Of a stretch of 15,791 nucleotides of DNA, positions 2,110 to 15,791 are shown in pieces. The notes under the pieces are model-generated. The model was not told the origin of the DNA. It was given only the letters and a program-made list of their open reading frames with translations, and searched no databases. Within the stretch, counting starts at the first letter, position 1. Each line of letters opens with the position of its first letter. The translations under genes and the position numbers were made by a program. This stretch comes from a virus (Duplodnaviria > Heunggongvirae > Uroviricota > Caudoviricetes). The DNA lies in the IMG/VR virus record IMGVR_UViG_2737471840_000001, positions 1 through 15,791 of that record, one strand, 5' to 3'.

Positions 2110-2121
2110 CTTATTATCCCC

Positions 2122-2661
2122 TTATCGACCGGTTGGAGTGCCAACAGCAGCAGAAATCGGCGCAGCCTTCTGAGAGAATGGGCTCCACGTTCCTCCGCCC
2201 ATCTGGTATGCACCGTATGCTTTTAGTGGTGCCGTTAACAAAGTGCTGGTCATCGATGATTTAGCAGCCGACTGAGCAGCAGCCCCCTGTGCCTGAGCAT
2301 TCATTCCCTGAACCTGATACCCATATGCCTCACGCTGAGCATTATTCACTGTCGTTAACGCATCAAGAGTGCCGAACTGAGCATTATCCGCAAAAACGTC
2401 AAGAGCTGTTCCGCTACTTAATTCCGCACCGGTAGCCCCCATAGTGGCCGCCGCAGTTCCTGAGCGTTGACGCATTTCACGACGACGCTGATCCGCTTCA
2501 ATATTCCCACGATTGATTGAATCCTGTGCCTGAGCTTCAGCAATTTCAGCATTCCGATCAGCTATGGCTGACTGGTATTTTGCCTGCTTGCTCTGGCTGT
2601 ACATTGACGCGGCTGTGGATGCCACTGTGACGGCAACCAAAGCGATGGCTGGGTTACACAT
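2122..2661 (-). CDS. Internal virion protein B-like (gp14 position), hydrophobic N-terminus
   Basis: 179-aa ORF from the track. N-terminal MCNPAIALVAVTVASTAASMY looks like a membrane anchor, rest is Ala/Gln-rich. ATG at 2661 shares one base with the upstream stop (TAATG). Confidence 0.5.
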   Translation of the reverse strand: MCNPAIALVAVTVASTAASMYSQSKQAKYQSAIADRNAEIAEAQAQDSINRGNIEADQRRREMRQRSGTAAATMGATGAELSSGTALDVFADNAQFGTLDALTTVNNAQREAYGYQVQGMNAQAQGAAAQSAAKSSMTSTLLTAPLKAYGAYQMGGGTWSPFSQKAAPISAAVGTPTGR

Positions 2662-3125
2662 TATTTTCTCTCCATGTGAAATCTGTGGAAATTAAGACCA
2701 AGAGCACCATAAGGCGCGGCTTCTTCAAGCCTGAATCCAAGCCAGTGCAGCCATGCTTTGGCAACATGGTTTCGCTCGTCGACGTAGTTTTCCAGGTGCG
2801 GATAAACTGCCAGCATCTGCTGCAATACAGGGCGGCAGTGGCGCAGAAATGTCTTCTGATATTTTTCAATACGGCTGGTTCCGACCAGCCAGGGCGTACC
2901 ATTGCCACCGATCATTGACGCCGGAGATACGCCAAACATGGTTACCAGTTCTCCGTTCGCAAATCCTGACCAGGCCATAGTCGCAGTACGCAGACCAACA
3001 CGCAGCGCATCTTCGGTAGTCATCAGTGATACCGCATACAGTTCGTCAATATCAGCCTGACGAACATCCGGCAAAATCATCTGAAGATGCTCTTCGGTAG
3101 CGGGAATAATTCGAACATCGATCAT
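2661..3125 (-). CDS. Hypothetical virion protein (gp13 position by synteny)
   Basis: 154-aa ORF. ATG at 3125 shares one base with the stop of the 820-aa gene (TGATG), implying translational coupling. Confidence 0.5.
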   Translation of the reverse strand: MIDVRIIPATEEHLQMILPDVRQADIDELYAVSLMTTEDALRVGLRTATMAWSGFANGELVTMFGVSPASMIGGNGTPWLVGTSRIEKYQKTFLRHCRPVLQQMLAVYPHLENYVDERNHVAKAWLHWLGFRLEEAAPYGALGLNFHRFHMERK

Positions 3126-5587
3126 CAGAATCCCCCAACAGTAAGGCGAGGAATAACGGCAAGAACAGACAGCGGCAACGGGTCAAGCTGACGGATTTTT
3201 ACACGTCCGTTTTTGCCCCAGTTACTGTCCAGTTTCACTTCTACTTTTCCGGTAGCGTCATCAACAGGATCATCGTAGAACTCGAATTCACGCTGTGGAT
3301 ATTCGTACCATTTACCGCTGGGCGTAGTCGCCCAGATGCCGCGACTGGCATTCACAACCAGAGTAACTGACGGGATCACCTGTTTTTTGTCCAGCAGCGT
3401 TTCCTGTCCGTTAATGTTGATATCCAGTGTTTCGAATTCGGCAGTTATTGGCAGGCCGATGTGCACTACAGCCCCCGGAGATTCCAGCGTGACGGCACCT
3501 CCGGAAACCACTTTCTGTGGTTCCACGTTCGCATCAGAGAGAATGTTTACGGTCTGCCCTTCAAGATGAGACAGGCCTCCAAATGTCCGGCGCGCCATCT
3601 GCCAGTTCGTGGTGGCCACATTCCTGAGGGATGGCGGGACGTTCCTGTTAGCACGAACCACTACAGCGGTGTTGCTGGTTACAGAAATAATGTCGCAACG
3701 TAATTCTTTTGCGCCAGTATCAGGATCAGTTCCGGTATAAGGGAACTGTAGTTGCGCACCGACATCACTACTGGTGAAGTACGCACCACCAGAAACACTG
3801 ATTGTATATTCCGCACGGTAATCCCATTCACCAGAACCACCAGTGATGGTCATCGTTCTGTCAGACGTATTTCTTCCATCATAGCTAAGGCCAGAATCAA
3901 CAAAGAAAGCATCTTCATCGCTGGTAAATAAACGGCTGGACAGTCTCTCGATGTATCTCACTATTTGCCCGTTAACGGTTCGGTTAACGACGAAATACAC
4001 CGCATCTTCATTGCCTTCGCTGATACTGCACGTGCTTTCATATTTTCCGGTACTGGACTGTGGTGCCCATGCAAAAACCTGTTGATCACGCAAATAGGTC
4101 ATCACCAGTAATTTACCGTCATCACGAATGCAGAAGGCGCTGGAGTAAGGGACAATCGAGAAGCACCAGTCAACAATGCTGTGCTTCTGAAAAAGATGAT
4201 TGGCAAGGATGGTCAGGTCGTTCCCCTGATAGCCATCAACATCGAATGAGTAGGCCAGATCACGGACAACACTGCCTTTCTCCTGGACGAACAGAGCAAT
4301 ATTCGCCACAGCAATTGGTGGGACGTTGCTTGAGCCATTTGATCCCTGAGAGCTGAATGCAAATGATGATGGGGTTAACACTTTGTTCTGGTCACCGGTG
4401 ATGACGTACTCACCTCCGGAAGTCAGTGCCACCAGCGAACCGACATCAATCAGGTGGCGGATCTCATTAACCTGACGCCCGGCATAGGTGTAGATAATTC
4501 TGTCGTCATCCTGCGTAGGATTGCTTTTGCCAAAATCCTTATAATCCCCAGTACGGCTGGCCCAGATAGTCTGAGGGAACGCAGTCGATGCGGCGAAGTA
4601 AAGACGTTGTTGATAATAAACAACAGTGCCAGGATAACCATTAACACTGTTCCAGGCATATTTAGCCCATTTATAGCTGGCATTATCCTCGCCAACGACC
4701 TGCGAAGGGATATAGGAAATCACCTCAGCAGTTGCAGTAGTGCCATTTACAGCAGTTATACGGGCAATGCCAAAACCACTGTGCAGATACTCCCACTCAA
4801 TGCCAGTATCATCATCACCCGATCCACCCCAGCCATCCCATGATGTGCCTTCTGTATGCGAAGGGCGCAAAGTGCCTGTTTTGCCTGCTGTAACGGCGCG
4901 ATAGTAGTTACTGTCTGCACGGCGAATATCGCCAATCGACGTACTCTTACTGGTTTCCCATACCGGCACTGAATCCACTGCTGGCTGTTCCAGATAGAAC
5001 AATTTGCCTACCTGCTCCGCGCCAAAAATAGAGGCGCTTGCCGTTAACGTAATTGTCCCGGTGCTGGCGCTGGCATAAACCGTCACTGACTCGTCAATAT
5101 TGATATCTTCAAATGGCCCGTTCTTCGTTATCACATCAACCAGTTGCCAGTTGTCATGAGCATATCGGCGCAACTCTTTCGGCGGGTATGCCGGGTGAAC
5201 CAGCGTAAGCACGTCGGCGCTTTGCGTGAATTTAATTCGGAACAGATCGGCTTCAGTATATGGCGTGGCAATTTCATAAATAACATTGCTACTGTTCAGC
5301 ACCAACGCACCATCTTTGATAACGCGCATGTACTGGTGTCCGAACTCCAGAGCATAGGTCTGAACCGTCGAGAACTGGAACGGGATCAGGCGGCATTTCC
5401 GATTTGGGTATTTGGCGGCACCGACAAAACGCGTACCAGGTCGATTCTCAACGCCGCCATACTGCCGCACGATAAAGTTATCGCACTTGCGCAATGCCAC
5501 CTGGTACTTCGCCATGTCAATACGCCCGTACAACGACGGTCCAATCTCACCACCGGCAAAGCTGGGTTGGATCCAACTGATAGCCAT
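3125..5587 (-). CDS. Tail tubular protein B-like (T7 gp12-like nozzle protein)
   Basis: 820-aa ORF. Size and N-terminus (MAISWIQPSFAGGEIGPSLYGRID) resemble T7 gp12 as I recall it. Directly follows the gp11-like gene with a TGATG overlap. Confidence 0.6.
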   Translation of the reverse strand: MAISWIQPSFAGGEIGPSLYGRIDMAKYQVALRKCDNFIVRQYGGVENRPGTRFVGAAKYPNRKCRLIPFQFSTVQTYALEFGHQYMRVIKDGALVLNSSNVIYEIATPYTEADLFRIKFTQSADVLTLVHPAYPPKELRRYAHDNWQLVDVITKNGPFEDINIDESVTVYASASTGTITLTASASIFGAEQVGKLFYLEQPAVDSVPVWETSKSTSIGDIRRADSNYYRAVTAGKTGTLRPSHTEGTSWDGWGGSGDDDTGIEWEYLHSGFGIARITAVNGTTATAEVISYIPSQVVGEDNASYKWAKYAWNSVNGYPGTVVYYQQRLYFAASTAFPQTIWASRTGDYKDFGKSNPTQDDDRIIYTYAGRQVNEIRHLIDVGSLVALTSGGEYVITGDQNKVLTPSSFAFSSQGSNGSSNVPPIAVANIALFVQEKGSVVRDLAYSFDVDGYQGNDLTILANHLFQKHSIVDWCFSIVPYSSAFCIRDDGKLLVMTYLRDQQVFAWAPQSSTGKYESTCSISEGNEDAVYFVVNRTVNGQIVRYIERLSSRLFTSDEDAFFVDSGLSYDGRNTSDRTMTITGGSGEWDYRAEYTISVSGGAYFTSSDVGAQLQFPYTGTDPDTGAKELRCDIISVTSNTAVVVRANRNVPPSLRNVATTNWQMARRTFGGLSHLEGQTVNILSDANVEPQKVVSGGAVTLESPGAVVHIGLPITAEFETLDININGQETLLDKKQVIPSVTLVVNASRGIWATTPSGKWYEYPQREFEFYDDPVDDATGKVEVKLDSNWGKNGRVKIRQLDPLPLSVLAVIPRLTVGGF

Positions 5588-6192
5588 CAGGACAACCTCG
5601 CAATGGTAAACTCGTCAACCGGAGGCTGTGGTTCCTGTGATTCATTCTGGCTATGCGAGCCAGCACTAAGAATCACGCGATTGTACATATTGAGGGCAAA
5701 CGTACCGAGGTCTGCATTCCCAGTCAGCGCCATGTTAATAGCTGCCGCAAGACGCCAGGCCAACGCCTCCATAAAAATGGCATCAAACATGTTCACATCT
5801 GTAACGCGAGAGACATACTTGAGCCATGCCTGAGGCTGGTCTGTGTAGATCAACTTTCCTGTTCCGTTGGTGTCTGCACCAACTTCGTACTGAACGCGCA
5901 TTGCTGCTGTTGGATTGCGTACACCAGGAAGCATAATTTCAGTAATGCGCAGACAATCTGACGGGTACTGGTACGCATATTCCCAGTCAGGCGGTGGATT
6001 GCTCGTATCTGCAAGCGCCACGCGTTTGGTAGCAAAGTTCCAGTCAAAATCAGAAAGCACAGCATCACGACAGGCCTCAAAGTGCAGCGAACATTCCCCC
6101 GCTTCCTTGCTGGCTTCCGTCAGGCTGTTAATGCTGCGGCTGTTGCCAATATTGGACAGCGCACGATTACAGATCTCTACTACAGAGGCCAT
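5587..6192 (-). CDS. Tail tubular protein A-like (T7 gp11-like gatekeeper)
   Basis: About 201 aa from ATG at 6192 (the track start at 6195 is GTG). N-terminus MASVVEICNRALSNIGNSRSINSLTE resembles gp11-type proteins by recollection. Overlaps neighbouring genes at both ends. Confidence 0.5.
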   Translation of the reverse strand: MASVVEICNRALSNIGNSRSINSLTEASKEAGECSLHFEACRDAVLSDFDWNFATKRVALADTSNPPPDWEYAYQYPSDCLRITEIMLPGVRNPTAAMRVQYEVGADTNGTGKLIYTDQPQAWLKYVSRVTDVNMFDAIFMEALAWRLAAAINMALTGNADLGTFALNMYNRVILSAGSHSQNESQEPQPPVDEFTIARLS

Positions 6193-6515
6193 CACTCACC
6201 TCCGTTACCGTACAGAGTTTCAGCCGCTGATTTTTCTACATCCCCGGAAACAGGAGCGATCGCCATATCAGTGATCTGCAGATCGGCGCTGCGATTAACG
6301 CCATCGTTAGTTTCTCTGGCAGACAGGCCTCGAATAACAGCCTTTGCAGTTATCATCACTTCTGTTCCGACGCCCTGAGGTTGCGCCTTCAGCTTATTCA
6401 ATGTGTCGTTATTAAGAGTGATGCACAGCCCCCACGGGTATTCATCGCGAGTTCTGGTTTCTCCGCTCTCATCCTGGTAGCTGTCAGTGCCGGTTTTGAG
6501 GTTTACGAGTTCCAT
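6192..6515 (-). CDS. Hypothetical small virion protein (possible head-tail adaptor)
   Basis: 107 aa from ATG at 6515 (MELVNLKTG...), with AGGAG RBS 8 nt upstream. The track start at 6521 is GTG. Confidence 0.5.
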   Translation of the reverse strand: MELVNLKTGTDSYQDESGETRTRDEYPWGLCITLNNDTLNKLKAQPQGVGTEVMITAKAVIRGLSARETNDGVNRSADLQITDMAIAPVSGDVEKSAAETLYGNGGE

Positions 6516-6525
6516 ATACACTCCT

Positions 6526-6549
6526 GCAATAAAGGGGCCGAAGCCCCTT
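6526..6549 (-). terminator. Intrinsic terminator-like hairpin between head and tail gene blocks
   Basis: Minus strand reads GGGGC-TTCG-GCCCC followed by TTTATTG; plus-strand coordinates 6534-6547 for the stem-loop. Lies in the 45-nt gap between the genes ending at 6566 and starting at 6515. Confidence 0.55.
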
Positions 6550-6565
6550 GTCTGATCCGCGAGGC

Positions 6566-6901
6566 TTACACGCCCAGTTCTTTACGCTTATCTGCGATCT
6601 TCTCGCGGAGCGTTTCGGCTTTGGCGTTATGGTGTGGCTTCTCGTTAAAGAGCAATTCGTACTCTTCACGGAGCTTATCCAGTTCACCATCATCTGACAT
6701 ATCGTTGATGATTTTGGTGCTGGTTGCTGCCATTGACACCTTTCCTGCTACCTTTGCTTTTGCCTGTCTGGCTGCATCGTTAACAGGTTCCAGTGCGCTA
6801 CCAGGCTCACCTTCGTATTCGATTTCTACCCCCTCCGGCCACAGAGTGTTATGGATATGAGAGAGGCGCAGAACGCGGTATCTTGGTTTCTCACCTGACA
6901 T
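6566..6901 (-). CDS. Hypothetical small virion protein
   Basis: About 111 aa from ATG at 6901 (MSGEKPRYRVL...), AGGTGA RBS. The track start at 6910 is GTG. Confidence 0.45.
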   Translation of the reverse strand: MSGEKPRYRVLRLSHIHNTLWPEGVEIEYEGEPGSALEPVNDAARQAKAKVAGKVSMAATSTKIINDMSDDGELDKLREEYELLFNEKPHHNAKAETLREKIADKRKELGV

Positions 6902-6911
6902 CAATATCACC

Positions 6912-7349
6912 TTAACCAGTTACTTTTGAGCGGATCGGATACGGCGTATTGGCATCAACATCAAGACTGATACCAGCAGTGAATTTGCCGGCCGTTAGTG
7001 GGCCAGTTGCGACGGAGTAGTTAACACGCAGATATCGCTGAACACCAGCAGGCACCTTTGCAGAAACAACTCGCTTACCTGCTGTCAGGGTGGCCTTTGC
7101 CAGTGCGCCACTATCATAAATAGTGGACCATGAGCTGTTATTCTCACTCGTCTGCAACTGGATGTTTACAGTTGCCTCACCACTTGCCGTGGCGGCTTCG
7201 TTAACCAGCACCCAAAACTCAAGCGGATAACCCACGCCGATATCGCGACGGTTTCCATCAATTGGACCGAGATCGATTACGTCAGTAGAAGCCGCGGTAT
7301 TCGTAACCGCCTGAGCTTCGGAGAACATCAACAGTTTGTCGGTGATCAT
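6912..7349 (-). CDS. Hypothetical structural protein immediately downstream of major capsid (possible decoration protein)
   Basis: 145-aa ORF, ATG at 7349 with GGAGAAAG RBS. Gly/Thr/Ala-rich composition typical of structural proteins. Assignment by position only. Confidence 0.5.
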   Translation of the reverse strand: MITDKLLMFSEAQAVTNTAASTDVIDLGPIDGNRRDIGVGYPLEFWVLVNEAATASGEATVNIQLQTSENNSSWSTIYDSGALAKATLTAGKRVVSAKVPAGVQRYLRVNYSVATGPLTAGKFTAGISLDVDANTPYPIRSKVTG

Positions 7350-7364
7350 CTTCTTTCTCCATTA

Positions 7365-7384
7365 GTGGGTCTGTTACGACCCAC
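7365..7384 (-). other. Stable stem-loop in the capsid-downstream intergenic region
   Basis: GTGGGTC-N6-GACCCAC perfect 7-bp inverted repeat at 7365-7371 and 7378-7384. No U-tract follows on either strand. Confidence 0.35.
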
Positions 7385-7400
7385 AGGTTAATAACAGGCG

Positions 7401-8393
7401 TTACACCACGCGGGCTTCTGTTTCCAGAAGCGCATCAGTTTCACGGATTGGTACACCACGGAATGAAGTCCACCACTCGCCTTCAGTCTCTTTTACGCTG
7501 ATAGCCAGAGATGTTTTCTCCAGAGACTGCAGATCAAGAGCCTGGCCTACAGTGCGGTTCATGTAGAACACCGGGCGGCCCATGCCACGGTTTGGAATGC
7601 GATGCAGTGCTTTAACCATCAACTTCGCAATATTTGCGGCAGAGGAAGGTTCTGAAAGATTGCTGACATCGATGTTTGCAATGCGAACAACATAACGCCA
7701 GTCACGCAGAGCAAGTCCGTTGTCCCATTTGTAATGGGTGCGATAGCCTTCGTACTTGCCGCCATTAGCATCTTCCAGTGTCACCTGGCCTTTATCTTCC
7801 ATCTGGATGCCAGCCTTCTGCCCTTTCGGGAAGATGCCATGCACGGTGTTTTCGCCCCACACCACTAACCAGATGGAGGTGTTATCTGTACCCGTGCCAC
7901 CAGCATCAATGATGTTCTGAGCATTACCCGCAGACAGGCTGGAATAGCGGGAGGACAGTCCCATAAACTGCTGAGGGTTAACGCTGGAATCACCATAAAA
8001 CAGCGTCTGCGCCATCTGCTGATTCATCGCTTCAATAAATGCGCGGTCTTCAGACAGGCGGAATTCGGCGGTATTGCCGTTCAGATCAGCCAGTGACTTA
8101 TCGACTTCAGCATAGGTTTCCAGCATGCCAACGGAATCGGTTACCTGCACTGTGGTTGATTTGCTTGGCTGTACGCCATAGTTCAGCAAACGCCAGGTAG
8201 CTGAAGGTAAACCAGAACGAATGGTGGTTCGGTGTCCGGTAGGAAGGTTCCCTTCGACAAAAGGCATATCCTGAAGGATCGGGTTAGTTTGACCGAGAAG
8301 CTCGATAATCTTATCGACTTTCCCGTTTGGATCGACGCGCTTACCCCAGTCAGCCAGCGTTAGCGCAGTTAAGCCTTTAACAGCCATTGTCAT
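7401..8393 (-). CDS. Major capsid protein
   Basis: 330-aa ORF, ATG at 8393 with strong RBS (AAGAGAGGAA). Sits directly after the scaffold gene in canonical head-gene order. Confidence 0.7.
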   Translation of the reverse strand: MTMAVKGLTALTLADWGKRVDPNGKVDKIIELLGQTNPILQDMPFVEGNLPTGHRTTIRSGLPSATWRLLNYGVQPSKSTTVQVTDSVGMLETYAEVDKSLADLNGNTAEFRLSEDRAFIEAMNQQMAQTLFYGDSSVNPQQFMGLSSRYSSLSAGNAQNIIDAGGTGTDNTSIWLVVWGENTVHGIFPKGQKAGIQMEDKGQVTLEDANGGKYEGYRTHYKWDNGLALRDWRYVVRIANIDVSNLSEPSSAANIAKLMVKALHRIPNRGMGRPVFYMNRTVGQALDLQSLEKTSLAISVKETEGEWWTSFRGVPIRETDALLETEARVV

Positions 8394-8401
8394 TTCCTCT
8401 C

Positions 8402-9097
8402 TTATTTGCCATAGAGCACTTCGGCCGCACTACGCTGGCCTTCATTACCACCGGTGACCATGCCATCTTCAGACATCGCCTTTCCGATTTTCACGAACGT
8501 TTTGACCAGATCAGGGTGATTACCCAGCCCGGTGGTGTTCAGATATTCTTTGAGTTCAGGTGTCCCGAACTGATCAAGCGCACGCTGTGCGACGCTAAGG
8601 TTAGAAATCAACTTGTCGCCACCGATTTCTTTGTCAGCTTTTACATCCGCAGCCCACTGCTCGGTTGTTTTCTGCCAGGCTTCTGCCTGGCGCTGCTGAA
8701 CACCTGCCAGAATCTTCGGATAAGCATCAACCAGCTTTTGCGCTTGCTCGTTGGTCAGGTTAAGTTCTCGCGCCACCGGCTCGAATTCCTTCAACGCTTC
8801 TGTATCAAGCTCTACGCCTTCGGCAGCCTGAAACTCGTACTTCTCAGGCGCACCCTCTGGTTTATCGCCGCCCTTTTTTTCATCCTGCTTATCGTTTTCA
8901 GGCTTTTTGTCATCAGCAGGTTTATCGCCATCAGCAACAGGTTGTGGCTTATCGCCTTCCTGTTGTGATGGATCAACAACTGGAGCAGGGTTATCACCTG
9001 CAGGCGCTGACGGTTCTGACGCAGCCGGAGCTGCTCCACCATCGACTGGTTGCTCATTGCAAAGACGGCGATACAGCAAACGCTCAAATAAATTCAT
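8402..9097 (-). CDS. Scaffolding (capsid assembly) protein
   Basis: About 231 aa from ATG at 9097 (MNLFERLL...), AGGAG RBS. Low-complexity Pro/Asp/Lys/Glu-rich acidic region (PQPVADGDKPADDKKPENDKQDEKKGGDKPEGAPE). Lies between portal and capsid. Confidence 0.6.
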   Translation of the reverse strand: MNLFERLLYRRLCNEQPVDGGAAPAASEPSAPAGDNPAPVVDPSQQEGDKPQPVADGDKPADDKKPENDKQDEKKGGDKPEGAPEKYEFQAAEGVELDTEALKEFEPVARELNLTNEQAQKLVDAYPKILAGVQQRQAEAWQKTTEQWAADVKADKEIGGDKLISNLSVAQRALDQFGTPELKEYLNTTGLGNHPDLVKTFVKIGKAMSEDGMVTGGNEGQRSAAEVLYGK

Positions 9098-9099
9098 GA

Positions 9100-9396
9100 T
9101 CACTCCTGTTCACTGGCCTCTTTGGCCATCTTCAAATACTGTTCAGGGCAATGCGCCATAACGCGCTGAAACAGTTCCAGCGCCAGATTGCGTTGCCCCT
9201 CATTAAATGCCATTGCCATAGCGTCCATCGGTGAGATAGCGGAAAACACCCGGCCTTTCTCCAGCACAGACCAGACAACGCGACGCCCCTGTTCACTGCT
9301 CATGACAAAGCGAATGTCATCAATTTCACGCTGTGCCATGTCACGTTGCTTACGGGCGTTTTCTTCTTTCAGTTGATCATCTTCGTAATCTGTCAT
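9100..9396 (-). CDS. Hypothetical protein between portal and scaffold
   Basis: 98-aa ORF, ATG at 9396 overlapping the portal stop (ATGA). Acidic, helical-looking composition. Confidence 0.5.
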   Translation of the reverse strand: MTDYEDDQLKEENARKQRDMAQREIDDIRFVMSSEQGRRVVWSVLEKGRVFSAISPMDAMAMAFNEGQRNLALELFQRVMAHCPEQYLKMAKEASEQE

Positions 9397-11072
9397 TGTG
9401 ATTGCCCACCCTGACCACTAACTGCATTCGCCATAGCTGACAAAACACTCGGATCCGAAGTTTTAGCTTCGCTTAGCGTCTTGGCACCCTGTGCCGCCGC
9501 CATCCCCATCGCCATCATTTGTTGTTGCTGTTGTTGCTGTGCCCGTTGCTGGCGAGCCTGCTCAACCTGTTCCTGCGGAACAATGACGGTTGGAGACACT
9601 CCGGACATATCAGCGAATGCATCGATCGCCTGATCAACGTTGAGTTTGTCGAGAGCTTCTGGTTTCGCTTGCGCAAGTTGACCAATGAAGTTAACCGTGG
9701 ACGCCAGACTGGACAGGCCGATAGACTTCTGCGCCTGAGCCATGACAGAAATGTATTCGACCTTCAGGGGCATACCTTCCATCGCGTCAGGCGGTGGCGG
9801 CAGCATGTTTTTACGCACCATCATCGAGAAAGCGCGGTCAATGAGAGGATTAAGACATTCGTCGTTCAGACGCTCCAGAACCGGCCCCAACATCAGAAGT
9901 TTTTCTTCTTTCATTTCGATCACCGCTTCAACAGGCATCGAGCGGGTATTGATGTTCTGCAACATCATGAACAGATCGACAAAGTAGGCGCTGTTAATGA
10001 TTTGGCGGGTGTCCTGAATGTCTGCTACCAGATCTGCTGTACTGGGGTTAACCAGATAAGCAGGCCTGAAACCATCCTGACCAGTAATCTGATCGATATA
10101 CGTGATGTCGCCAGGAAGAAGGGAGGCGCGCTGATTCTTGAGGGAAGTCGGAGCAACCATCGGCGGATTGGTGGCTTTATCAATCAACTGCGACTTGCGC
10201 TTCTGGAGAAGCTGCAGTGCCTTAACAGGTCCAAGCGCCAGCATACCCGGGCATGATGATCCATAAACATCTTCGCCGTTAACTTCCCAGCGCGGAGCCA
10301 TAATTGGAAACTCATCGAATCCGGACTCACGCAACAACTTGTCGTTATCGCCACCAACCTCGTAATAAACCGATTTGAATGGCTTGTTCTTGCTATCCAG
10401 CTTCGATGTATCGCGGTCAATGTTCGGGTAAACCGAATGCATCACTTCAATCCACTTCTCGTAGGTGCCGCTTTCCCACATGCTTTTTACGGATTCGCTG
10501 ACGTTATTTAGCCCGAACTCCTGAACAAGCTGACGAACAGTCATAGAGAACTTGCGAAAACAGGTGTCCACACTGCCACGAGGTGAGTTAGCCAGGTAGT
10601 AACTGCCTATCGGGAATGGCATTGTGCGAATGATGTCCTCGTCATCCTCCAGCACTGCCATTGCACCAGTGCTGTATGTGCCGAGGCTTCCGTATAACTG
10701 CGGCAGAGACTGATAGAGATTCGACTTATTGAACATATCGTTCATGCGGTTCTGCACCGCCTCAAGCCACAACTTAACAGGGCCATAATCCATCATTTCA
10801 GGATCTGGCGTAGCCAGGCGAAACCACGGACGCGCGGGGCTTGTGATGCCTGACATCATGCCGCTGGCGAGAGTGCGCGCCGCCATAGTCCCGGTCGAAT
10901 CAATAATGCGTGTATTGCGTCGATCGTTACGGTTGACCTCTGAAGTCAGAAAGCGGGAACCACGCGGGTTGATGTAATCACTCAACTCGCGCCAGTGCGG
11001 CTCGAACGACTGACGCTCGCTTTCAAGTTGTGCGAACTGTTTGTTCAATCGCTCTTTAGTTGTTTCCGCCAT
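9393..11072 (-). CDS. Portal (head-to-tail connector) protein, T7 gp8-like
   Basis: 559-aa ORF immediately downstream of the terminase region. Gln/Ala/Met-rich C-terminal tail (QQRAQQQQQQQMMAMGMAAAQG...) resembles T7-type connectors as I recall them. ATG at 11072 with GGAG RBS. Confidence 0.75.
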   Translation of the reverse strand: MAETTKERLNKQFAQLESERQSFEPHWRELSDYINPRGSRFLTSEVNRNDRRNTRIIDSTGTMAARTLASGMMSGITSPARPWFRLATPDPEMMDYGPVKLWLEAVQNRMNDMFNKSNLYQSLPQLYGSLGTYSTGAMAVLEDDEDIIRTMPFPIGSYYLANSPRGSVDTCFRKFSMTVRQLVQEFGLNNVSESVKSMWESGTYEKWIEVMHSVYPNIDRDTSKLDSKNKPFKSVYYEVGGDNDKLLRESGFDEFPIMAPRWEVNGEDVYGSSCPGMLALGPVKALQLLQKRKSQLIDKATNPPMVAPTSLKNQRASLLPGDITYIDQITGQDGFRPAYLVNPSTADLVADIQDTRQIINSAYFVDLFMMLQNINTRSMPVEAVIEMKEEKLLMLGPVLERLNDECLNPLIDRAFSMMVRKNMLPPPPDAMEGMPLKVEYISVMAQAQKSIGLSSLASTVNFIGQLAQAKPEALDKLNVDQAIDAFADMSGVSPTVIVPQEQVEQARQQRAQQQQQQQMMAMGMAAAQGAKTLSEAKTSDPSVLSAMANAVSGQGGQSQ

Positions 11073-11086
11073 TTCAATGACTCCGG

Positions 11087-11293
11087 TTACTGACCAAGCA
11101 GCGTTTTACCGCTGGTATTAGCGGTTGATGTGTCGCCCTGAGAACCGGTAAGCAGCGTAGAACTACGACCAGCAGCAGCGCGACGGCGACGAGTTTCTTC
11201 GTCGCGGGCATCAACAACGGCGGCATCCTGCTCCTGTGGTGCTGCCTGAACTTCTGGTGTTGCAGGCACTGACGGTGAGCTACCCATGCACAT
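11087..11293 (-). CDS. Candidate small low-complexity protein upstream of portal
   Basis: 68-aa ORF, ATG at 11293, preceded by CGGAGTCATTGA, the same 12-nt RBS context found in front of the portal ATG. Composition is Ala/Arg/Thr/Ser-rich; coding status uncertain. Confidence 0.35.
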   Translation of the reverse strand: MCMGSSPSVPATPEVQAAPQEQDAAVVDARDEETRRRRAAAGRSSTLLTGSQGDTSTANTSGKTLLGQ

Positions 11294-11315
11294 ATCAATG
11301 ACTCCGTACGCAATT

Positions 11316-11388
11316 AAATTATTACCAATTTAACCACATATGATTTATTTATCGTAGATAGTTGACATTTAACGCACAAATTATTACC
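11316..11388. repeat. Two copies of AAATTATTACC in the AT-rich intergenic region, flanking a TTGACA hexamer
   Basis: Exact 11-bp direct repeat at 11316-11326 and 11378-11388. TTGACA at 11363-11368. Inverted repeat TTACC-N5-GGTAA at 11384-11398. Confidence 0.6.
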
Positions 11389-11439
11389 TTTCAGGTAACC
11401 AAAGAGTTCATTCCGGTTACTAACCTGACTGGCTTGTCG

Positions 11440-11721
11440 TTAAATTGAACAGGTGGAGTGAGCTTTTATTTTGAGCAGTACGGCGTATGGCACATGCGCC
11501 GATAGCGGTCTGGATACGTTTAAGGGGCACCCTCCCTTGCTCGGGCAAACGAACCAGGTAGCCGGAATGTGCAAGTCGAGCGGTTTTATTCCGCGCACGG
11601 GGATTCACCATCCCGGCGATTCGGTGTGACGCCTCGGAAGAGACGAGGGTACAACGATGAGAGCATTTATGGAGCCGCGACAAAGTGTGGCGCACTTAAC
11701 AGGCTAAGTGCTCTCAGCGTT
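11440..11721 (+). ncRNA. Candidate structured non-coding RNA or long leader upstream of tRNA-Arg
   Basis: About 280 nt of GC-rich sequence with no credible ORF on either strand. Local hairpins: TTGC-tcgg-GCAA (11537-11548), GCGG-N7-CCGC (11580-11594), GGGAT-N5-ATCCC (11600-11614), CCTCG-N7-CGAGG (11632-11648). Boundaries and strand are not determined. Confidence 0.3.
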
Positions 11722-11798
11722 GTGGCATTAGCTCAGTTGGACAGAGCAACCGCCTTCTAAGCGGTTGGTCGCAGGTTCGAATCCTGCATGCCACGCCA
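11722..11798 (+). tRNA. tRNA-Arg (anticodon UCU), argU-like, with encoded CCA
   Basis: Hand-folded cloverleaf: acceptor GTGGCAT/ATGCCAC, D-arm GCTC-AGTTGGACA-GAGC, anticodon stem ACCGC/GCGGT with loop CTTCTAA, T-arm GCAGG-TTCGAAT-CCTGC, discriminator G, CCA. Body closely resembles enterobacterial argU from memory. Confidence 0.9.
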
Positions 11799-11841
11799 GA
11801 ATCACGCCTAAGGACCGTGATGCCAGAAGTTCCAGGTGCTT

Positions 11842-11884
11842 GGCGGTGATGGTTTCCCTTGAAGGACTATCACCGCCATTTTTA
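11842..11884 (+). terminator. Intrinsic terminator downstream of tRNA-Arg
   Basis: GGCGGTGAT (11842-11850) pairs with ATCACCGCC (11869-11877), internal CCTT/AAGG pairing, followed by a run of five T (11879-11883). Confidence 0.55.
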
Positions 11885-11962
11885 CAGCAGGACGCCATTG
11901 CGATGACTTCATGCTGTAAACCAGTACAGCCACGGAAGGCATAACTCATTGCTTCCAGTTCT

Positions 11963-11986
11963 CCCGGTTCGTCCGGGCATTTTTTT
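11963..11986 (+). terminator. Intrinsic terminator-like hairpin just upstream of the 110-aa ORF RBS
   Basis: CCCGG-TTCGT-CCGGG (11963-11977), then CA and seven T (11980-11986). No U-tract on the opposite strand. Confidence 0.5.
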
Positions 11987-11998
11987 AAGGTGAAAATC

Positions 11999-12331
11999 AT
12001 GAAAGAGAAGACTGCAGCTGAGCGCTATGCCGCAGCTATCAATGCCGCGATGGCGATTGTAAACCTGCGTGAAGAGATTAAAGATCTCCTTGCAATTATC
12101 CATAACAACCTGACATGTACAGAGTTGCTTGGCGGTCAGTACAACGGTGAGGCGGTGAAGGAGGCATTTAAAAATGCCGAGGTAGGAATAATTCCAGCAA
12201 ACTATGTCAAGGCTGAATGTGTGCTCCTAAAGGCACGAGTGAGTCTGCATGAAGATCCTGGTAATCTCGGTCGAACTGCAATGCGTTACGTGATAGACGA
12301 GTCGAATGCCAAACACAATCTACCGAAATAA
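11999..12331 (+). CDS. Orphan hypothetical protein (110 aa), moron-like, opposite to the morphogenesis operon
   Basis: ATG at 11999 with AAGGTG RBS 6 nt upstream (the track start at 11990 is GTG). Product MKEKTAAERYAAAINAAMAIVNLREEIKDLL... has no recognised motif. Uses rare ATA, CTA and CGA codons and looks lower in GC than neighbours. Bracketed by terminators. Confidence 0.6.
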   Translation: MKEKTAAERYAAAINAAMAIVNLREEIKDLLAIIHNNLTCTELLGGQYNGEAVKEAFKNAEVGIIPANYVKAECVLLKARVSLHEDPGNLGRTAMRYVIDESNAKHNLPK

Positions 12332-12334
12332 CAC

Positions 12335-12348
12335 CGTGACATGTCACA
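12335..12348. repeat. CGTGACATGTCACA, copy 1 (perfect 12-bp palindrome GTGACATGTCAC inside)
   Basis: Exact 14-bp match to 14600-14613. Lies 4 nt after the stop of the 110-aa ORF and before the terminator at 12352-12380. Confidence 0.8.
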
Positions 12349-12351
12349 AAC

Positions 12352-12380
12352 AGCCAGCCTATGAGCTGGCTTTGTTTTAT
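12352..12380 (+). terminator. Intrinsic terminator after the 110-aa ORF
   Basis: AGCCAGC (12352-12358) pairs with GCTGGCT (12365-12371), loop CTATGA, then TTGTTTTAT. The opposite strand has an A-tract before the hairpin, so it is unidirectional for plus-strand transcripts. Confidence 0.6.
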
Positions 12381-12421
12381 CCTCACCAGAGGATATCAAC
12401 GACATTATCCCCACCAGCGGA

Positions 12422-13897
12422 TTAAGCATAGGGATCGTAATCTGTGATGGCCTTGCCTTGCTGGTTCTGCTGACCGGGAATTCGCAGACGCTTCGACACA
12501 GGGAACGCAAACGTCAGCAGTAGCGCATCGCCTTTACCAGGAGAACGCCCAAGTCGCTCTTTGATATCTTCCTTCGGTTCGATAACGATTTTACCGTCCA
12601 CTCGAACTTTGTACTCTGCTGCCGACAGGTCGTCCGCTGTTTCCTGGTCATCCAGCATGCCGCCCAGCCTCAGCCATGTCTTGCATGAATTGAACATCTC
12701 CCCACGCTTGTTGAGCATCTGCGGGTCAGTAGACGCGCCACCGAACGGAACAAGTTGCCATGTACGACCCCATCCGTCACCGATTGACTTCAGACCGGTT
12801 CCGTAACCGAAGTCGATGAACACCGCGTCAGCCTGATACTGGTCTTCAAAGTCAGCGATACGCTTCGCCATAATCAGATCGTCGGTAGTCTTGTTGCCAG
12901 TCCACAGCACCTTACTGTGTAGCCCCTGCCGCAGGTATATCACCGCGTCATCAACGCCTGAATATGCCGGGTCAACACCGATTATCACCGGAGCATGCGC
13001 CACCTGCGCAGCGGTTACCACCCGTTTCATTGCCTCATCAGTAAGACCGGTAGGGATAAACTGCAATTCAGATGCATCAGGGAATATGCCGCGCACACGG
13101 ATTTTAACGAAGTCGCTGTCTTCCCCGTAGTCATCAACCCATTTCTGCAACTGCTGTTTGTTAGTGCCTTCCACCGTTCGGCTGTCAATCTGCGCAGTTT
13201 TCCAGCGGTGTTTATATTTGCGGAAACATTCACGGAATCGCCCGGTATTACGCGTCGGGTTTCCGAACGCCACCCAGATAATCTCAGTGTCTTCGTCCGT
13301 TAGCGCACCTTCGGCAACTTCCCACACCAGATCCGCAATGTTCGACGCTTCATCGAATACCACGATGATGCGTTTGCGCTCGTTGTGTAGTCCGGCGAAT
13401 GCCTCAGTGTTGTGCTCAGACCAGGGGATTGCGTCAGCTCGCCACCGCTTGTCGTGCCCAGGATCATTGCTGTACATCGCGGTAGCGGTACAGGTAAACC
13501 AGTCTTTCGTGATAGCAAGGTTCGACCACTTGATAATTTCCGGCCAGGTCTTCGTTCGTAGCTGGTTGTCGGTGTTGGCGGTCACCACGACCTTACAATC
13601 CTCGCAAGTGGACATGCCCCAGTTGATCAGCATTGAGATGAATGCGGATTTACCAATACCGTGACCAGAAGCACGTGCCAGCATAAGCGGCTGATATCGC
13701 GTCTCTGGATTCTGCAGGTGATCACGTATCTCTCGGAACGCATCGGCCTGCCACTGACGTGGACCGGTGGCATGTGCCAGTTCAGTACCCTCTTCCCCCC
13801 ACGGGAACGCATAGAGGGCATAGCCAAGCGGATCGTGAGTGAACCCTGCAATATCCTCGATTAACTGCTCTTCAGGAGATAACGCTGTATCTGTCAC
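12422..13897 (-). CDS. Terminase large subunit
   Basis: 491-aa ORF with a P-loop/Walker A motif (ASGHGIGKS) near the N-terminus and an acidic nuclease-type segment (VDPAYSGVDDAVIY) in the C-terminal half. GTG start at 13897 overlapping the terminase small stop (GTGA). Confidence 0.85.
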   Translation of the reverse strand: MTDTALSPEEQLIEDIAGFTHDPLGYALYAFPWGEEGTELAHATGPRQWQADAFREIRDHLQNPETRYQPLMLARASGHGIGKSAFISMLINWGMSTCEDCKVVVTANTDNQLRTKTWPEIIKWSNLAITKDWFTCTATAMYSNDPGHDKRWRADAIPWSEHNTEAFAGLHNERKRIIVVFDEASNIADLVWEVAEGALTDEDTEIIWVAFGNPTRNTGRFRECFRKYKHRWKTAQIDSRTVEGTNKQQLQKWVDDYGEDSDFVKIRVRGIFPDASELQFIPTGLTDEAMKRVVTAAQVAHAPVIIGVDPAYSGVDDAVIYLRQGLHSKVLWTGNKTTDDLIMAKRIADFEDQYQADAVFIDFGYGTGLKSIGDGWGRTWQLVPFGGASTDPQMLNKRGEMFNSCKTWLRLGGMLDDQETADDLSAAEYKVRVDGKIVIEPKEDIKERLGRSPGKGDALLLTFAFPVSKRLRIPGQQNQQGKAITDYDPYA

Positions 13898-14490
13898 TGA
13901 TTGCCATCCTGACGTTCTTTCAGTCTCTTCCTGGCTGCCGCTATGCGATCAGCAATTGTCACATTCACATTAACATCCAGGCGTTCTTTGAATGCGTTGA
14001 CGTCGACGTGCTTACCAATCAGTTCGAGGTTCTTCACCTTGTCAGGCCATTTAATTTTTTTGAGGATTGTCTCTATCGAATCCTCGTTCATGTTCATGAT
14101 GGTCGATGACAGATCAAAGCCACTAAGCGTAGTGCGCCAGATTTTCGGCCACTCGCGGATTGGCTTAAGACTCCCATCGTCGTTGAGGATATCAATCACG
14201 TCCATCTGGTCGATCTCCACCAGGCGCATGAGAACGTAATCAGCACTGACGCGCATTCGTTTGTTGCGCTCCTCCATCAACTCGGCAATCCGTTTTTGAA
14301 TGCGTTCATCACGCATCATGACACTGGCTTTAACTGCCGCTGTATTTGGGGAGAATCCTGCGTTAATCGCTGCCTGAGTCTGGTTTTCAGGCGTTTTGAT
14401 GTATGACTGGCAATAAGCCTCCTGCATTGCTGTTAGTGGCTTAAATTGCGTTGATTTGCGTTTATAGGTTTTAGGTTCAGCAGGCATCAT
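13894..14490 (-). CDS. Terminase small subunit (Terminase_2-like)
   Basis: Conserved N-terminal signature LTAMQEAYCQSYIKTPENQTQAAINAGFS fits the Terminase_2 family pattern as I recall it. Start moved from the track's 14568 to the internal ATG at 14490 (MMPAEPK...) because a terminator hairpin and tandem repeats occupy 14498-14561. Confidence 0.7.
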   Translation of the reverse strand: MMPAEPKTYKRKSTQFKPLTAMQEAYCQSYIKTPENQTQAAINAGFSPNTAAVKASVMMRDERIQKRIAELMEERNKRMRVSADYVLMRLVEIDQMDVIDILNDDGSLKPIREWPKIWRTTLSGFDLSSTIMNMNEDSIETILKKIKWPDKVKNLELIGKHVDVNAFKERLDVNVNVTIADRIAAARKRLKERQDGNQ

Positions 14491-14497
14491 AACCACC

Positions 14498-14529
14498 GTG
14501 GTAATAGTTACCGTTGTGGTAATAGTACC
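14498..14529. repeat. Tandem imperfect repeat GTGGTAATAGTTACC / GTGGTAATAGTACC, each internally palindromic
   Basis: Copies at 14498-14512 and 14516-14529, separated by GTT. Located between the terminator hairpin and the terminase small start. A possible extended -10 element (TGGTACTAT on the minus strand, plus coordinates 14522-14530) overlaps copy 2. Confidence 0.6.
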
Positions 14530-14530
14530 A

Positions 14531-14561
14531 TGCAAAATAAAGCCGCCATAGTTGGCGGCAG
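14531..14561 (-). terminator. Intrinsic terminator upstream of the terminase genes
   Basis: Minus strand reads CTGCCGCC-AACTAT-GGCGGC followed by TTTATTTTG; plus-strand stem at 14542-14547 and 14554-14559. Confidence 0.5.
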
Positions 14562-14599
14562 TATTCAAAACCCATCAAATTCATCATGCATAATCTACT

Positions 14600-14613
14600 C
14601 GTGACATGTCACA
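14600..14613. repeat. CGTGACATGTCACA, copy 2
   Basis: Exact 14-bp match to 12335-12348. Overlaps the stop codon of the 115-aa minus-strand ORF and lies just upstream, in the minus-strand sense, of the terminator at 14531-14561. Confidence 0.8.
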
Positions 14614-14956
14614 CTATTAATTTCGTTTCATGCCAGCCTTTAGTCACCCAGCATTGCGAGTCACCATTACACGGGCATGAATTCACAGGAACTCTCTCGC
14701 CGCACTTACCGCAACGTTTTCTGCTGATCGATTTTATACGCCCGCGCACGCGTGCATCATCCTGGCGGATCAGTAACGCTATATACTCACCAAATTCGTA
14801 AGGCGCACGCCCGGGGCGACGTGTGGCACAGTTACGCTCCAGCATTTCAATTTCCTGAGCATCAAGCACAATCTCCAGCTTACGTACACCGGATTCAGCT
14901 TGTCTGGCTCTCTGAGCGGCTTTGCGTTCTGCGGGGGATTTAGCCACGAATCGCAC
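14609..14956 (-). CDS. Hypothetical protein with basic N-terminus and C-terminal cysteine cluster (possible zinc-ribbon or nucleic-acid-binding protein)
   Basis: 115-aa ORF with no ATG; GTG at 14956 or 14947, the latter with GGAG 8 nt upstream. C-terminus CGKCGERVPVNSCPCNGDSQC. Function unknown. Confidence 0.45.
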   Translation of the reverse strand: MRFVAKSPAERKAAQRARQAESGVRKLEIVLDAQEIEMLERNCATRRPGRAPYEFGEYIALLIRQDDARVRGRIKSISRKRCGKCGERVPVNSCPCNGDSQCWVTKGWHETKLIV

Positions 14957-15062
14957 TCCACGCCAGATTGATTAATGACTCCCAGGCAATATAAACCCGG
15001 ATACCAGCAGCCAGGCCGAAACCAATCACCATGGCATAAAGCAGAGCGTTGCACTTGTTCAT
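14940..15062 (-). CDS. Candidate 40-aa single-pass membrane peptide
   Basis: ATG at 15062 overlaps the stop of the DUF551 gene. Product MNKCNALLYAMVIGFGLAAGIRVYIAWESLINLAWSAIRG has one hydrophobic helix. The 65-aa track ORF would overlap the upstream gene by 76 nt, so the internal start is preferred. Confidence 0.35.
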   Translation of the reverse strand: MNKCNALLYAMVIGFGLAAGIRVYIAWESLINLAWSAIRG

Positions 15063-15775
15063 CACTTCACCTCCTGCGGCGGTTCTGGTAGCGGCATCCA
15101 GTGTGACGGTTTCCACGACGCACCAGGAATTATCCACCCATCATTAGCGTCAGGATGCCCGGGGATGTAAGTAGCCCATTTCATTCGCCAGTCACCTTTC
15201 CTGTCAAACTCCACGGCAACAAGAACGGCTGTTTTGGTATTCGGCATTCGCTCACTACAGCTTATCCAACCATCCGGAGTTGCCGGAGAGTTGCCCGATA
15301 GCTGGTTCAACTTGTAAGTTTGGCTTACAGGTTCGGCACCATGAAGCATGGCGTCGCTCCGCTCTATGCCATCCAGCGCGATTCGCAGTGCCTGAATTGT
15401 GGTAGAGCTATCGTTTGGGGCTATTCCATATCGCTCGAATACAGCTAAATGGTTGCGCATAATCTCAGGCGTAAGCTCTTTGTAAGCATAAGCAAGAGGC
15501 TCTGATGCATTATCCGGCACAACCGACGCAGGCGCGGCAGCATAAACAGGAATAACGTCCGCTTGCTCTTTATTGCTTTCATCCGTTAAAGACCAGAATA
15601 ATTTCCCGGCCGGATGTTTGAAAATATAAGCAACTGGATCTGCTTCCAGCGATGCCAGCGCAATTCGTGCCAGTTCTTCCGCCTCTTCTGCTGGCAGTAC
15701 AACGTTGCTACCAGGTCCGTATGTTTCGCGCCACTGCTTGATTGTCAGTAGTCGCTCTTTGGTAATAGTGATCAT
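15062..15775 (-). CDS. DUF551-domain phage protein
   Basis: 237-aa ORF, ATG at 15775 with AAGGAA RBS. C-terminus ...DGWIIPGASWKPSHWMPLPEPP matches the DUF551 signature common in enterobacterial lambdoid prophages, from memory. Confidence 0.6.
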   Translation of the reverse strand: MITITKERLLTIKQWRETYGPGSNVVLPAEEAEELARIALASLEADPVAYIFKHPAGKLFWSLTDESNKEQADVIPVYAAAPASVVPDNASEPLAYAYKELTPEIMRNHLAVFERYGIAPNDSSTTIQALRIALDGIERSDAMLHGAEPVSQTYKLNQLSGNSPATPDGWISCSERMPNTKTAVLVAVEFDRKGDWRMKWATYIPGHPDANDGWIIPGASWKPSHWMPLPEPPQEVK

Positions 15776-15791
15776 GCCGCGTTTCCTTCTT

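Follow-up and report, generated by a model that had tools for sequence, protein, structure and literature searches.

We analysed a stretch of 15,791 nucleotides of viral DNA (positions 1 to 15,791 of the IMG/VR virus record IMGVR_UViG_2737471840_000001; this whole stretch is called the window below), in which a gene for a tRNA-Arg with the anticodon UCU lies between terL and the portal gene. The gene is a genuine, functional-looking tRNA gene of the argU type and an optional cassette of a phiV10-like temperate podovirus. The phage does not carry it as an isolated gene. It is a swappable part of a conserved early leader RNA, a modular RNA for which the tRNA is one payload. The most likely role of the tRNA is extra decoding of AGA codons early in lytic growth, a reading to which we give a probability slightly above even (about 0.55). 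Two rivals are live, one in which the tRNA is cargo or a processing element of the leader RNA and one in which it acts against host defence. The tRNA itself adds little, as another rare-codon tRNA of a temperate phage, and its context matters more.

The tRNA gene and its conservation

ARAGORN called exactly one tRNA in the window, a tRNA-Arg of 77 nt with the anticodon TCT at 11722-11798 on the plus strand, and the Rfam tRNA model RF00005 matched it over the full length of the model with 73.3 bits against a gathering score of 29 (E = 9.7e-15). The sequence (GTGGCAT TA GCTC AGTTGGACA GAGC A ACCGC CTTCTAA GCGGT TGGTC GCAGG TTCGAAT CCTGC ATGCCAC G CCA) has an acceptor stem of 7 bp, all of them Watson-Crick, a normal D-arm, a canonical T-arm, the discriminator G73 and an encoded CCA end, and the anticodon UCU sits in the 7-nt loop CUUCUAA. 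The identity elements of arginyl-tRNA synthetase (ArgRS) are A20, C35, U36 and A or G at position 73, and all of these are present (A20 in the D-loop AGTTGGACA, C35, U36 and G73). The preliminary description of this DNA, made from its letters, had called the gene an intact argU-like tRNA with encoded CCA that reads AGA codons. Both calls bear this out, as does the identity of 83% (64/77) to the argU gene of Escherichia coli K-12, which is also 77 nt long.

The likeness to argU (dnaY) lies in the anticodon loop, the D-loop core, the T-arm, G73 and CCA, and the loops are equal to those of argU except for one D-loop base (position 20a) and two variable-loop bases. The difference lies in the acceptor and anticodon stems, which have been rewritten by changes that are all compensated, and in the phage gene being phage-borne and probably repressor-controlled. 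In more than 30 loci of E. coli, Salmonella and Klebsiella phages we found nine sequence variants of the tRNA, which change only the D-loop, the variable loop or the discriminator, or introduce G:U pairing into the acceptor stem. The Klebsiella tRNA of locus L004 (L numbers are our handles for loci) differs in 5 of 77 bases, while the surrounding region of about 700 nt, tRNA included, is about 75% identical by megablast. Because the variants spare the features of a tRNA and the tRNA diverges less than this region, the gene is under purifying selection as a tRNA, and such selection across genera gives indirect support for an expressed, processed and arginine-charged product. In the tRNAs of Klebsiella Uetakeviruses (L004 2913-2989, L006 2913-2989 and L078) the 3' strand of the acceptor stem reads ATGCTGC, which gives the pairs U2:G71 and G3:U70, and A73 is found in two Klebsiella tRNAs; the tRNA of the window has G3:C70 instead. 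G3:U70 together with A73 is the main identity set of alanyl-tRNA synthetase, and it is conceivable from these sequences that the Klebsiella UCU tRNAs are mischarged with alanine at AGA codons.

As a gene the tRNA is unremarkable, and public records already contain it. Annotations as tRNA-Arg exist in typing phages 9 and 10, phiv142-3, the Salmonella phages SPN9TCW and SPC32H/N and the Klebsiella phage ST512-KPC3phi13.3, and the RefSeq record of phiV10 omits the feature. With its flanks it occurs in 504 of the 5,426 complete E. coli genomes, where it is annotated by PGAP. These annotated tRNA-Arg genes of Uetakeviruses and their prophages represent one and the same gene, likewise placed between terL and portal, with 93-100% identity and no substantive difference.

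The leader RNA and its insert slot

The tRNA belongs to a rightward unit. A candidate promoter overlapped by a putative operator comes first, followed by a leader RNA of 183 nt, a slot closed by a stem, two terminators and an accessory open reading frame (ORF) that varies between relatives. About 330 nt upstream of the tRNA are non-coding yet strongly conserved, and the indels between relatives are not multiples of three. For this reason, and as the frame is not conserved, we rejected a protein-coding reading of the leader through a minus-strand ORF (11420-11695). A fold with five helices, one of them a pseudoknot, was proposed and scored on 25 diverse representatives. In these, 95% of the cells are paired and both partners vary in 12 of the 26 pairs; covariation scores 0.311, compared with 0.135 for shuffled columns and at most 0.084 for slid partners. 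The covariance model built on this fold, R1, scores 146 bits on positions 11479-11661 of the window. No Rfam family matched the leader or the alternative inserts of the slot in searches at E-value thresholds that covered the window, the 611-nt region alone and seven related loci and returned only tRNA, C4, isrK and noise.

The invariant 19-mer of the leader (GGTAGCCGGAATGTGCAAG) has matches in more than 120 IMG/VR contigs; the sample was gathered by exact matches to this 19-mer, and this selection by itself accounts for part of its invariance. In BLAST searches the leader was found in 1,840 of the 5,426 complete E. coli genomes (34%), with 554 of the places on plasmids, and among the matches listed no feature is annotated beneath it. 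Further blastn matches are in cdtI, several Stx2c phages, 2H10 and Ayreon. The leader is widespread and structured, and it is absent from Rfam and unannotated in the genome records inspected.

According to R1 each phage genome has one copy of the leader, for example phage P1 (L128 2500-2688), mEp460 (L129 2500-2681) and phiV10 (L134 2989-3171, minus strand). The sole case of two copies among the 41 loci searched with R1 is L024 of IMG/VR, with two full copies in tandem (3987-4154 and 4794-4959, both on the minus strand) about 640 nt apart. The position of the leader differs between phage groups. In mEp460 it lies directly 3' of the cI-type repressor gene, which is the position of a PL leader, in P1, P7 and their relatives it lies between trnI and ban within the C1-controlled ban operon, and in Uetakeviruses it occupies the gap between terL and portal. 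Epsilon15 lacks both the full leader and the tRNA; it keeps only the first leader hairpin (L130 2497-2558), followed by unrelated sequence, and the other strand is annotated there as an RNase III site. The leader was not found in the cryptic prophage CPS-53 of K-12, which has the downstream genes yfdP-yfdS in common. The prophage small RNAs Pas, AgvB and AsxR were considered as counterparts and rejected; they have a different neighbourhood, near Q and the lysis genes.

Beyond the junction CGTTGTGG the leader opens into a hypervariable, stem-closed insert site (11715-11800 in the window; the same position in L003, L007, L013, L015, L019, L022 and others). Among 126 loci with the leader 19-mer, the slot holds the tRNA in about 30, two common alternatives in 24 and 23, and at least five further types of insert in others, and it is empty in P1-type loci. 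The non-tRNA inserts are 76-281 nt long, and in 54 of 57 the closing strand is a perfect 6-9-nt complement of the TTGTGGT.. junction. Between the window and the sister prophage BCE049 the exchanged segment runs from GTGG to CCAC, that is, between the two ends of the acceptor stem. On the 3' side, a trailer hairpin follows tRNA and non-tRNA slots alike, with compensated variants. Several inserts start with GTGGTGAAT-GCGC-AGGCTGAT-GCGC, which resembles an acceptor stem and D-arm, and the Rfam tRNA model does not call them. Another RNA-like module also seems to be mobile: a long hairpin, AAGCGCACYCC...GGAGTGCGCTTCCAG, is upstream of the leader core in Klebsiella Uetakeviruses (L004, about 2590-2660), downstream of the core in other phages (L011), and degenerate in the window (11440-11480).

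The role of the tRNA

The cognate codon of the tRNA is commoner in the phage than in its host. Per 1000 codons, AGA and AGG were counted at 7.07 and 4.52 in the whole genome of phiV10, which has the tRNA, and at 2.07 and 1.30 in 11 host genes beside the sister prophage, so that the demand for AGA in phiV10 is about 3.4 times that of the host genes. The 18 ORFs of the window (4,911 codons) have 4.3 and 1.8. Among genomes in which the tRNA is absent, the values are 4.36 and 4.04 in whole epsilon15 and 7.08 and 4.56 in the BCE049 prophage. An AGA codon that had been pointed out near the start of a large gene does exist in the frame AGC AGA GGG, which spans codons 14-16 of a minus-strand gene with its start at 2109. 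The small regulator-like gene upstream of terS (phrog_536, 14609-14956, minus strand) has four AGA among its 116 codons, including codons 16 and 18, and its homologue in BCE049 has the same four AGA, though that prophage is without the tRNA.

It is likely that the candidate promoter (11362-11390) transcribes the tRNA rightward, opposite to the virion genes, and the putative operator over its -10 element would silence the unit in the lysogen and allow its expression at an early stage once the phage is induced or infects a cell. The primary transcript would be a long non-coding RNA made of the 183-nt leader, the connector stem, the tRNA, the trailer hairpin and the terminator T1, from which RNase P and 3' trimming may free the 77-nt tRNA with its CCA already present. 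ArgRS is expected to charge this tRNA, as A20, C35, U36 and G73 are all there, and the charged tRNA would add decoding of AGA, and of some AGG, for phage messengers that are rich in AGA relative to the host. Read-through of T1 and of the second terminator, T2, would express the accessory ORF, and the leader probably promotes this read-through because it is placed where the phages HK022 and HK639 carry put RNAs.

Several observations weigh against this account. BCE049, with about 97% identity in the surroundings of the locus, has another insert instead of the tRNA, but carries the same AGA load. The capsid, protease/scaffold and portal genes, the most highly expressed of the virion genes, contain no AGA at all, and the presence of the tRNA tracks AGA only in the comparison of phiV10 with epsilon15, one pair of Uetakeviruses. 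On the side of expression, the -10 element TACCTT is weak and a strict consensus scan did not call the candidate promoter, and the operator rests on the sequence-based annotation of another group, itself a prediction. The codon supply proposed in the preliminary description is backed by the excess of AGA over the host and weakened by BCE049 and by the virion genes without AGA, and we regard it as plausible but weak. The window and BCE049 form a natural pair with and without the gene, which shows that its presence is not closely tied to codon usage. The tRNA is an optional extra, not co-adapted with the genome and dispensable in nature.

The first of the live rivals, unlikely in our judgement although the better of the two, is that the slot takes any stably folded, stem-closed RNA. 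The tRNA would then be an RNase P site that splits the leader from the downstream messenger, or an efficiently expressed passenger with little effect on fitness. The variety of slot contents fits this, as do the closing of nearly all non-tRNA inserts by the junction complement, a swapped segment that starts and ends within the acceptor stem, the independent assortment of tRNA and ORF cassettes, and phage P1, where the leader directly follows a tRNA (trnI) instead of preceding one. However, a mere processing signal would not need the purifying selection seen on the anticodon loop, the T-loop and the ArgRS identity elements, and the alternative inserts are not recognised by the Rfam tRNA model and hence are not degenerate tRNAs.

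Somewhat less likely still is that the phage tRNA-Arg(UCU) keeps translation going when a nuclease of the host or of a prophage depletes the cellular tRNA-Arg. In this way the tRNAs of phage T5 counter PARIS (tRNA-Lys) and retron Eco7 (tRNA-Tyr). The accessory ORF beside the tRNA is a swappable protein cassette: the window carries phrog_27507, typing phage 9 and epsilon15 carry Phage_gp49_66, Klebsiella ST512-KPC3phi13.3 and L091 of IMG/VR carry a Tad2-like (Thoeris anti-defence 2) allele, and further alleles are found in other relatives (cassette ORFs include L004 3197-3718 and L001 4002-4373). Since the ORF is a variable cassette with a Tad2-like allele, the locus is, judged from these alleles, an accessory and anti-defence hot spot, as a counter-defence role would have it. 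The presence of the tRNA independently of codon usage among near-identical phages would also suit an accessory gene in an arms race, and tRNA-Arg is reported to be one of the tRNAs cut by retron Eco2 (PMC12916289) and by P2 OLD (PMC12445682).

In contrast, the tRNA does not look like one that evades cleavage. The documented phage tRNAs that do so differ from those of the host in the anticodon loop or stem (PMC10264068, PMC12445682). The pairs T5 tRNA-Lys and PARIS, tRNA-Tyr and retron Eco7, and phage tRNA-Thr and P2 OLD resemble our case as host tRNA species borne by a phage in an accessory region, but those tRNAs have changes in the anticodon loop or stem that block cleavage. Here the loop CUUCUAA is the same as that of host argU. 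Substrates of P2 OLD are marked by paired CNG motifs and A37 (PMC12445682); the phage tRNA has both (C28-C29-G30 with C40-G41-G42, and A37), whereas argU is without the CNG motifs, so by this rule the stem has gained the motifs and the phage tRNA would be more cleavable than argU and not less. A nuclease specific for tRNA-Arg(UCU) did not turn up in our literature search, and no PADLOC family matched the cassette proteins, coiled-coil noise aside. The earlier suggestion of a replacement for tRNAs lost to anticodon nucleases found no support. Simple replenishment of tRNA-Arg is conceivable, as Eco2 and OLD cut this tRNA, but nothing in the present data argues for it.

Two further explanations can be set aside. 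That the gene is a decaying pseudogene has nothing behind it beyond the lack of the tRNA in some relatives, and a perfect cloverleaf that scores 73.3 bits, together with E. coli and Klebsiella versions identical in at least 72 of 77 positions and free of stem-breaking changes, makes it very improbable. Weaker still, with hardly any probability left, is an origin as a host tRNA at the junction of a prophage (attB or attL) or as the remnant of an aberrant excision; argU, to which it is 83% identical, is itself an integration site, next to which DLP12 lies in K-12, but synteny has already refuted the junction reading and compensated changes set the acceptor and anticodon stems apart from those of argU.

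The details of the position agree with the preliminary description, which had placed the gene inside the phage, away from an integration junction and with no integrase nearby. The gene is flanked by phage genes in the order terL, tRNA and portal, as it also is in free phage genomes, and in phiV10 the P4-type integrase (26.9 kb) is about 24 kb from the tRNA locus (about 2.9 kb). The sister prophage BCE049 adjoins yfgI in the guaA region, and the study of vB_EcoP_ZX5, which reports 'one tRNA', gives the 3' end of guaA as attB (PMC9782041). The tRNA has neither an adjacent integrase nor a prophage boundary at its 3' end, the marks of an attachment site. Because of the distance to the integrase, the location of the prophage and the flanking synteny, we conclude that it is neither an attachment site nor the remnant of a junction. 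Lysogeny that depends on a tRNA, with integration destroying a host tRNA, was likewise ruled out by attB at guaA (PMC9782041).

Other features of the locus

The window contains the module for packaging and virion genes of a temperate podovirus of the phiV10/epsilon15 type (genus Uetakevirus) and is about 98% identical to phiV10, the E. coli O157 typing phages 9 and 10, phiv142-3 and ZX5. All virion genes are on the minus strand, and the tRNA and the accessory ORF are on the plus strand in the gap between terL and portal (Table 1). The statement that the tRNA is inside the structural region is therefore right for its place between these two genes and wrong for its organisation, as it is on the opposite strand in a non-coding and accessory transcription unit of its own, outside the structural operon.

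Table 1. Positions of the tRNA unit, its RNA elements and the neighbouring genes in the window.
Feature	Position	Strand	Basis
Capsid gene	7401-8393	-	
Portal gene	9393-11072	-	
Invariant 37-nt block TTAAATTATTACCAATTTAACCACATATGATTTATTT, divergent control region between portal operon (-) and tRNA unit (+)	11314-11350	.	Alignments
Candidate sigma-70 promoter: TTGACA (11362-11367), 17-nt spacer, TACCTT (11385-11390)	11362-11390	+	Read from sequence
Palindrome ATTACC-TTTCA-GGTAAC overlapping the -10; putative phage repressor operator	11383-11399	.	Alignment with epsilon15
Conserved structured leader RNA, 183 nt	11479-11661	+	Covariation, covariance model R1
Leader hairpin P1	11481-11501	+	
Leader helix P2, closing a variable insert	about 11509-11558	+	
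Leader invariant 19-mer GGTAGCCGGAATGTGCAAG	11557-11575	+	
Leader hairpin P4; loop CACC can pair with GGTG (within 11622-11630) as pseudoknot	11599-11614	+	
Leader hairpin P5, GAAGAGA loop	11632-11648	+	
Connector stem GAGAGCA...TGCTCTC around a variable hairpin, then junction CGTTGTGG opening the slot	11659-11715	+	Predicted fold, conserved flanks
tRNA-Arg(UCU) with encoded CCA, in the stem-closed leader slot	11722-11798	+	ARAGORN, Rfam, comparison with argU
Trailer hairpin ATCACG-CCTAAGGAC-CGTGAT	11801-11821	+	Conserved, predicted fold
Intrinsic terminator T1: 15-bp stem, then TTTTT	11841-11883	+	Terminator scan, predicted fold
Hairpin ACAGCAG...CTGT between T1 and T2	11884-11917	+	Conserved across relatives
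Intrinsic terminator T2: CCCGG-TTCGT-CCGGG, then T-run	11963-11986	+	Terminator scan, conserved in E. coli and Klebsiella relatives
Accessory ORF, 110 aa, phrog_27507; in-frame GTG at 11990	11999-12331	+	
Terminator T3, common to accessory ORF (+) and convergent terL (-)	12352-12378	.	Terminator scan
terL	12422-13897	-	
terS	13894-14568	-	

The 37-nt block is identical in the E. coli, Salmonella and Klebsiella relatives, and both hexamers of the candidate promoter are conserved in the Salmonella and Klebsiella relatives. The palindrome of the putative operator is conserved too. The palindrome over the -10 element aligns with a 17-nt site, ATTACCTTTTAGGTAAT, that is labelled 'repressor, lysogeny' in the GenBank record of epsilon15 (2931-2947). 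The same record puts similar repressor sites before terS and before the tailspike gene, and direct control of several operons by the repressor would be implied by these sites. T1 and T2 both lie between the tRNA and the accessory ORF, and the record of phiV10 annotates a terminator at the place equivalent to T3. Some coding sequences annotated as 'hypothetical protein' are probably spurious calls on non-coding RNA, namely L134 2672-2923 (PhiV10p04), L129 2443-2811 (mEp460_037) and L007 3058-3309. They cover the tRNA trailer with the terminator, the leader in antisense orientation, or the insert of the slot.

Comparison with known systems

The tRNAs of the ban operon of phage P1 (trnA, trnT and trnI) are similar to the tRNA of the window in belonging to a repressor-controlled early operon, and the same leader adjoins trnI there, upstream of ban. 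In P1, however, the tRNA is upstream of the leader and not in the slot, and the specificities differ (Asn, Thr and Ile2).

For the leader, the closest comparison is with the put RNAs of lambdoid phages. A put RNA suppresses termination in cis and depends on the zinc-binding domain of the beta-prime subunit of RNA polymerase. HK022 putL and putR and the putL-like RNA of HK639 are directly downstream of an early leftward promoter and beside the repressor gene, with terminators following. The leader is found in a similar position, after the repressor gene in mEp460, after the promoter and operator and before T1 and T2 in the window, and inside the C1-controlled operon in P1. It also has the short motifs ACGGCG..CATGCGTCG..AGCG and CGG(C)AATG(C)TGC in common with HK022 putL and with the annotated putL-like RNA of HK639. 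Because of this position, the terminators and the motifs, the analogy suggests a role of the leader as a processive antiterminator. A strict census of terminators downstream of the leader pointed to enrichment (0.58 against 0.085 per 600 nt), but 70 of 115 loci were uncalled because imperfect stems are missed by it, so this census was not relied on.

Homology to put is not supported. With or without filters, R1 does not match HK022 or HK639 at their put sites, and nhmmer found no homology of the leader to put of either phage. The residue G35 of put is essential in HK022 (PMC9378689), and its equivalent is not conserved here, as the base after stem I of the leader varies between A, C and T; both points count against an antiterminator of the put kind. 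We propose only tentatively, at less than even odds, that the leader represents a kind of cis-acting phage RNA not described before, which may be distantly related to put or be its larger functional analogue. In lambdoid, P1-like and epsilon15-like phages it would stand behind early promoters under repressor control, and its hypervariable slot would serve to express small RNAs, with tRNA-Arg(UCU) as one payload. If this is true, the slot would be a general platform by which phages deliver tRNAs and other small RNAs early in infection. An antiterminator or small-RNA platform at this place would account for a gap that recurs in prophage maps and would offer a handle on the control of early operons in phages without an N protein.

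In their build the two RNAs are different. The put RNAs are about 70 nt long with two stems and come as a left and right pair. The leader is 183 nt long, folds into five helices including a pseudoknot, and is present in one copy per genome; a second, putR-like copy was found in neither phiV10 nor mEp460.

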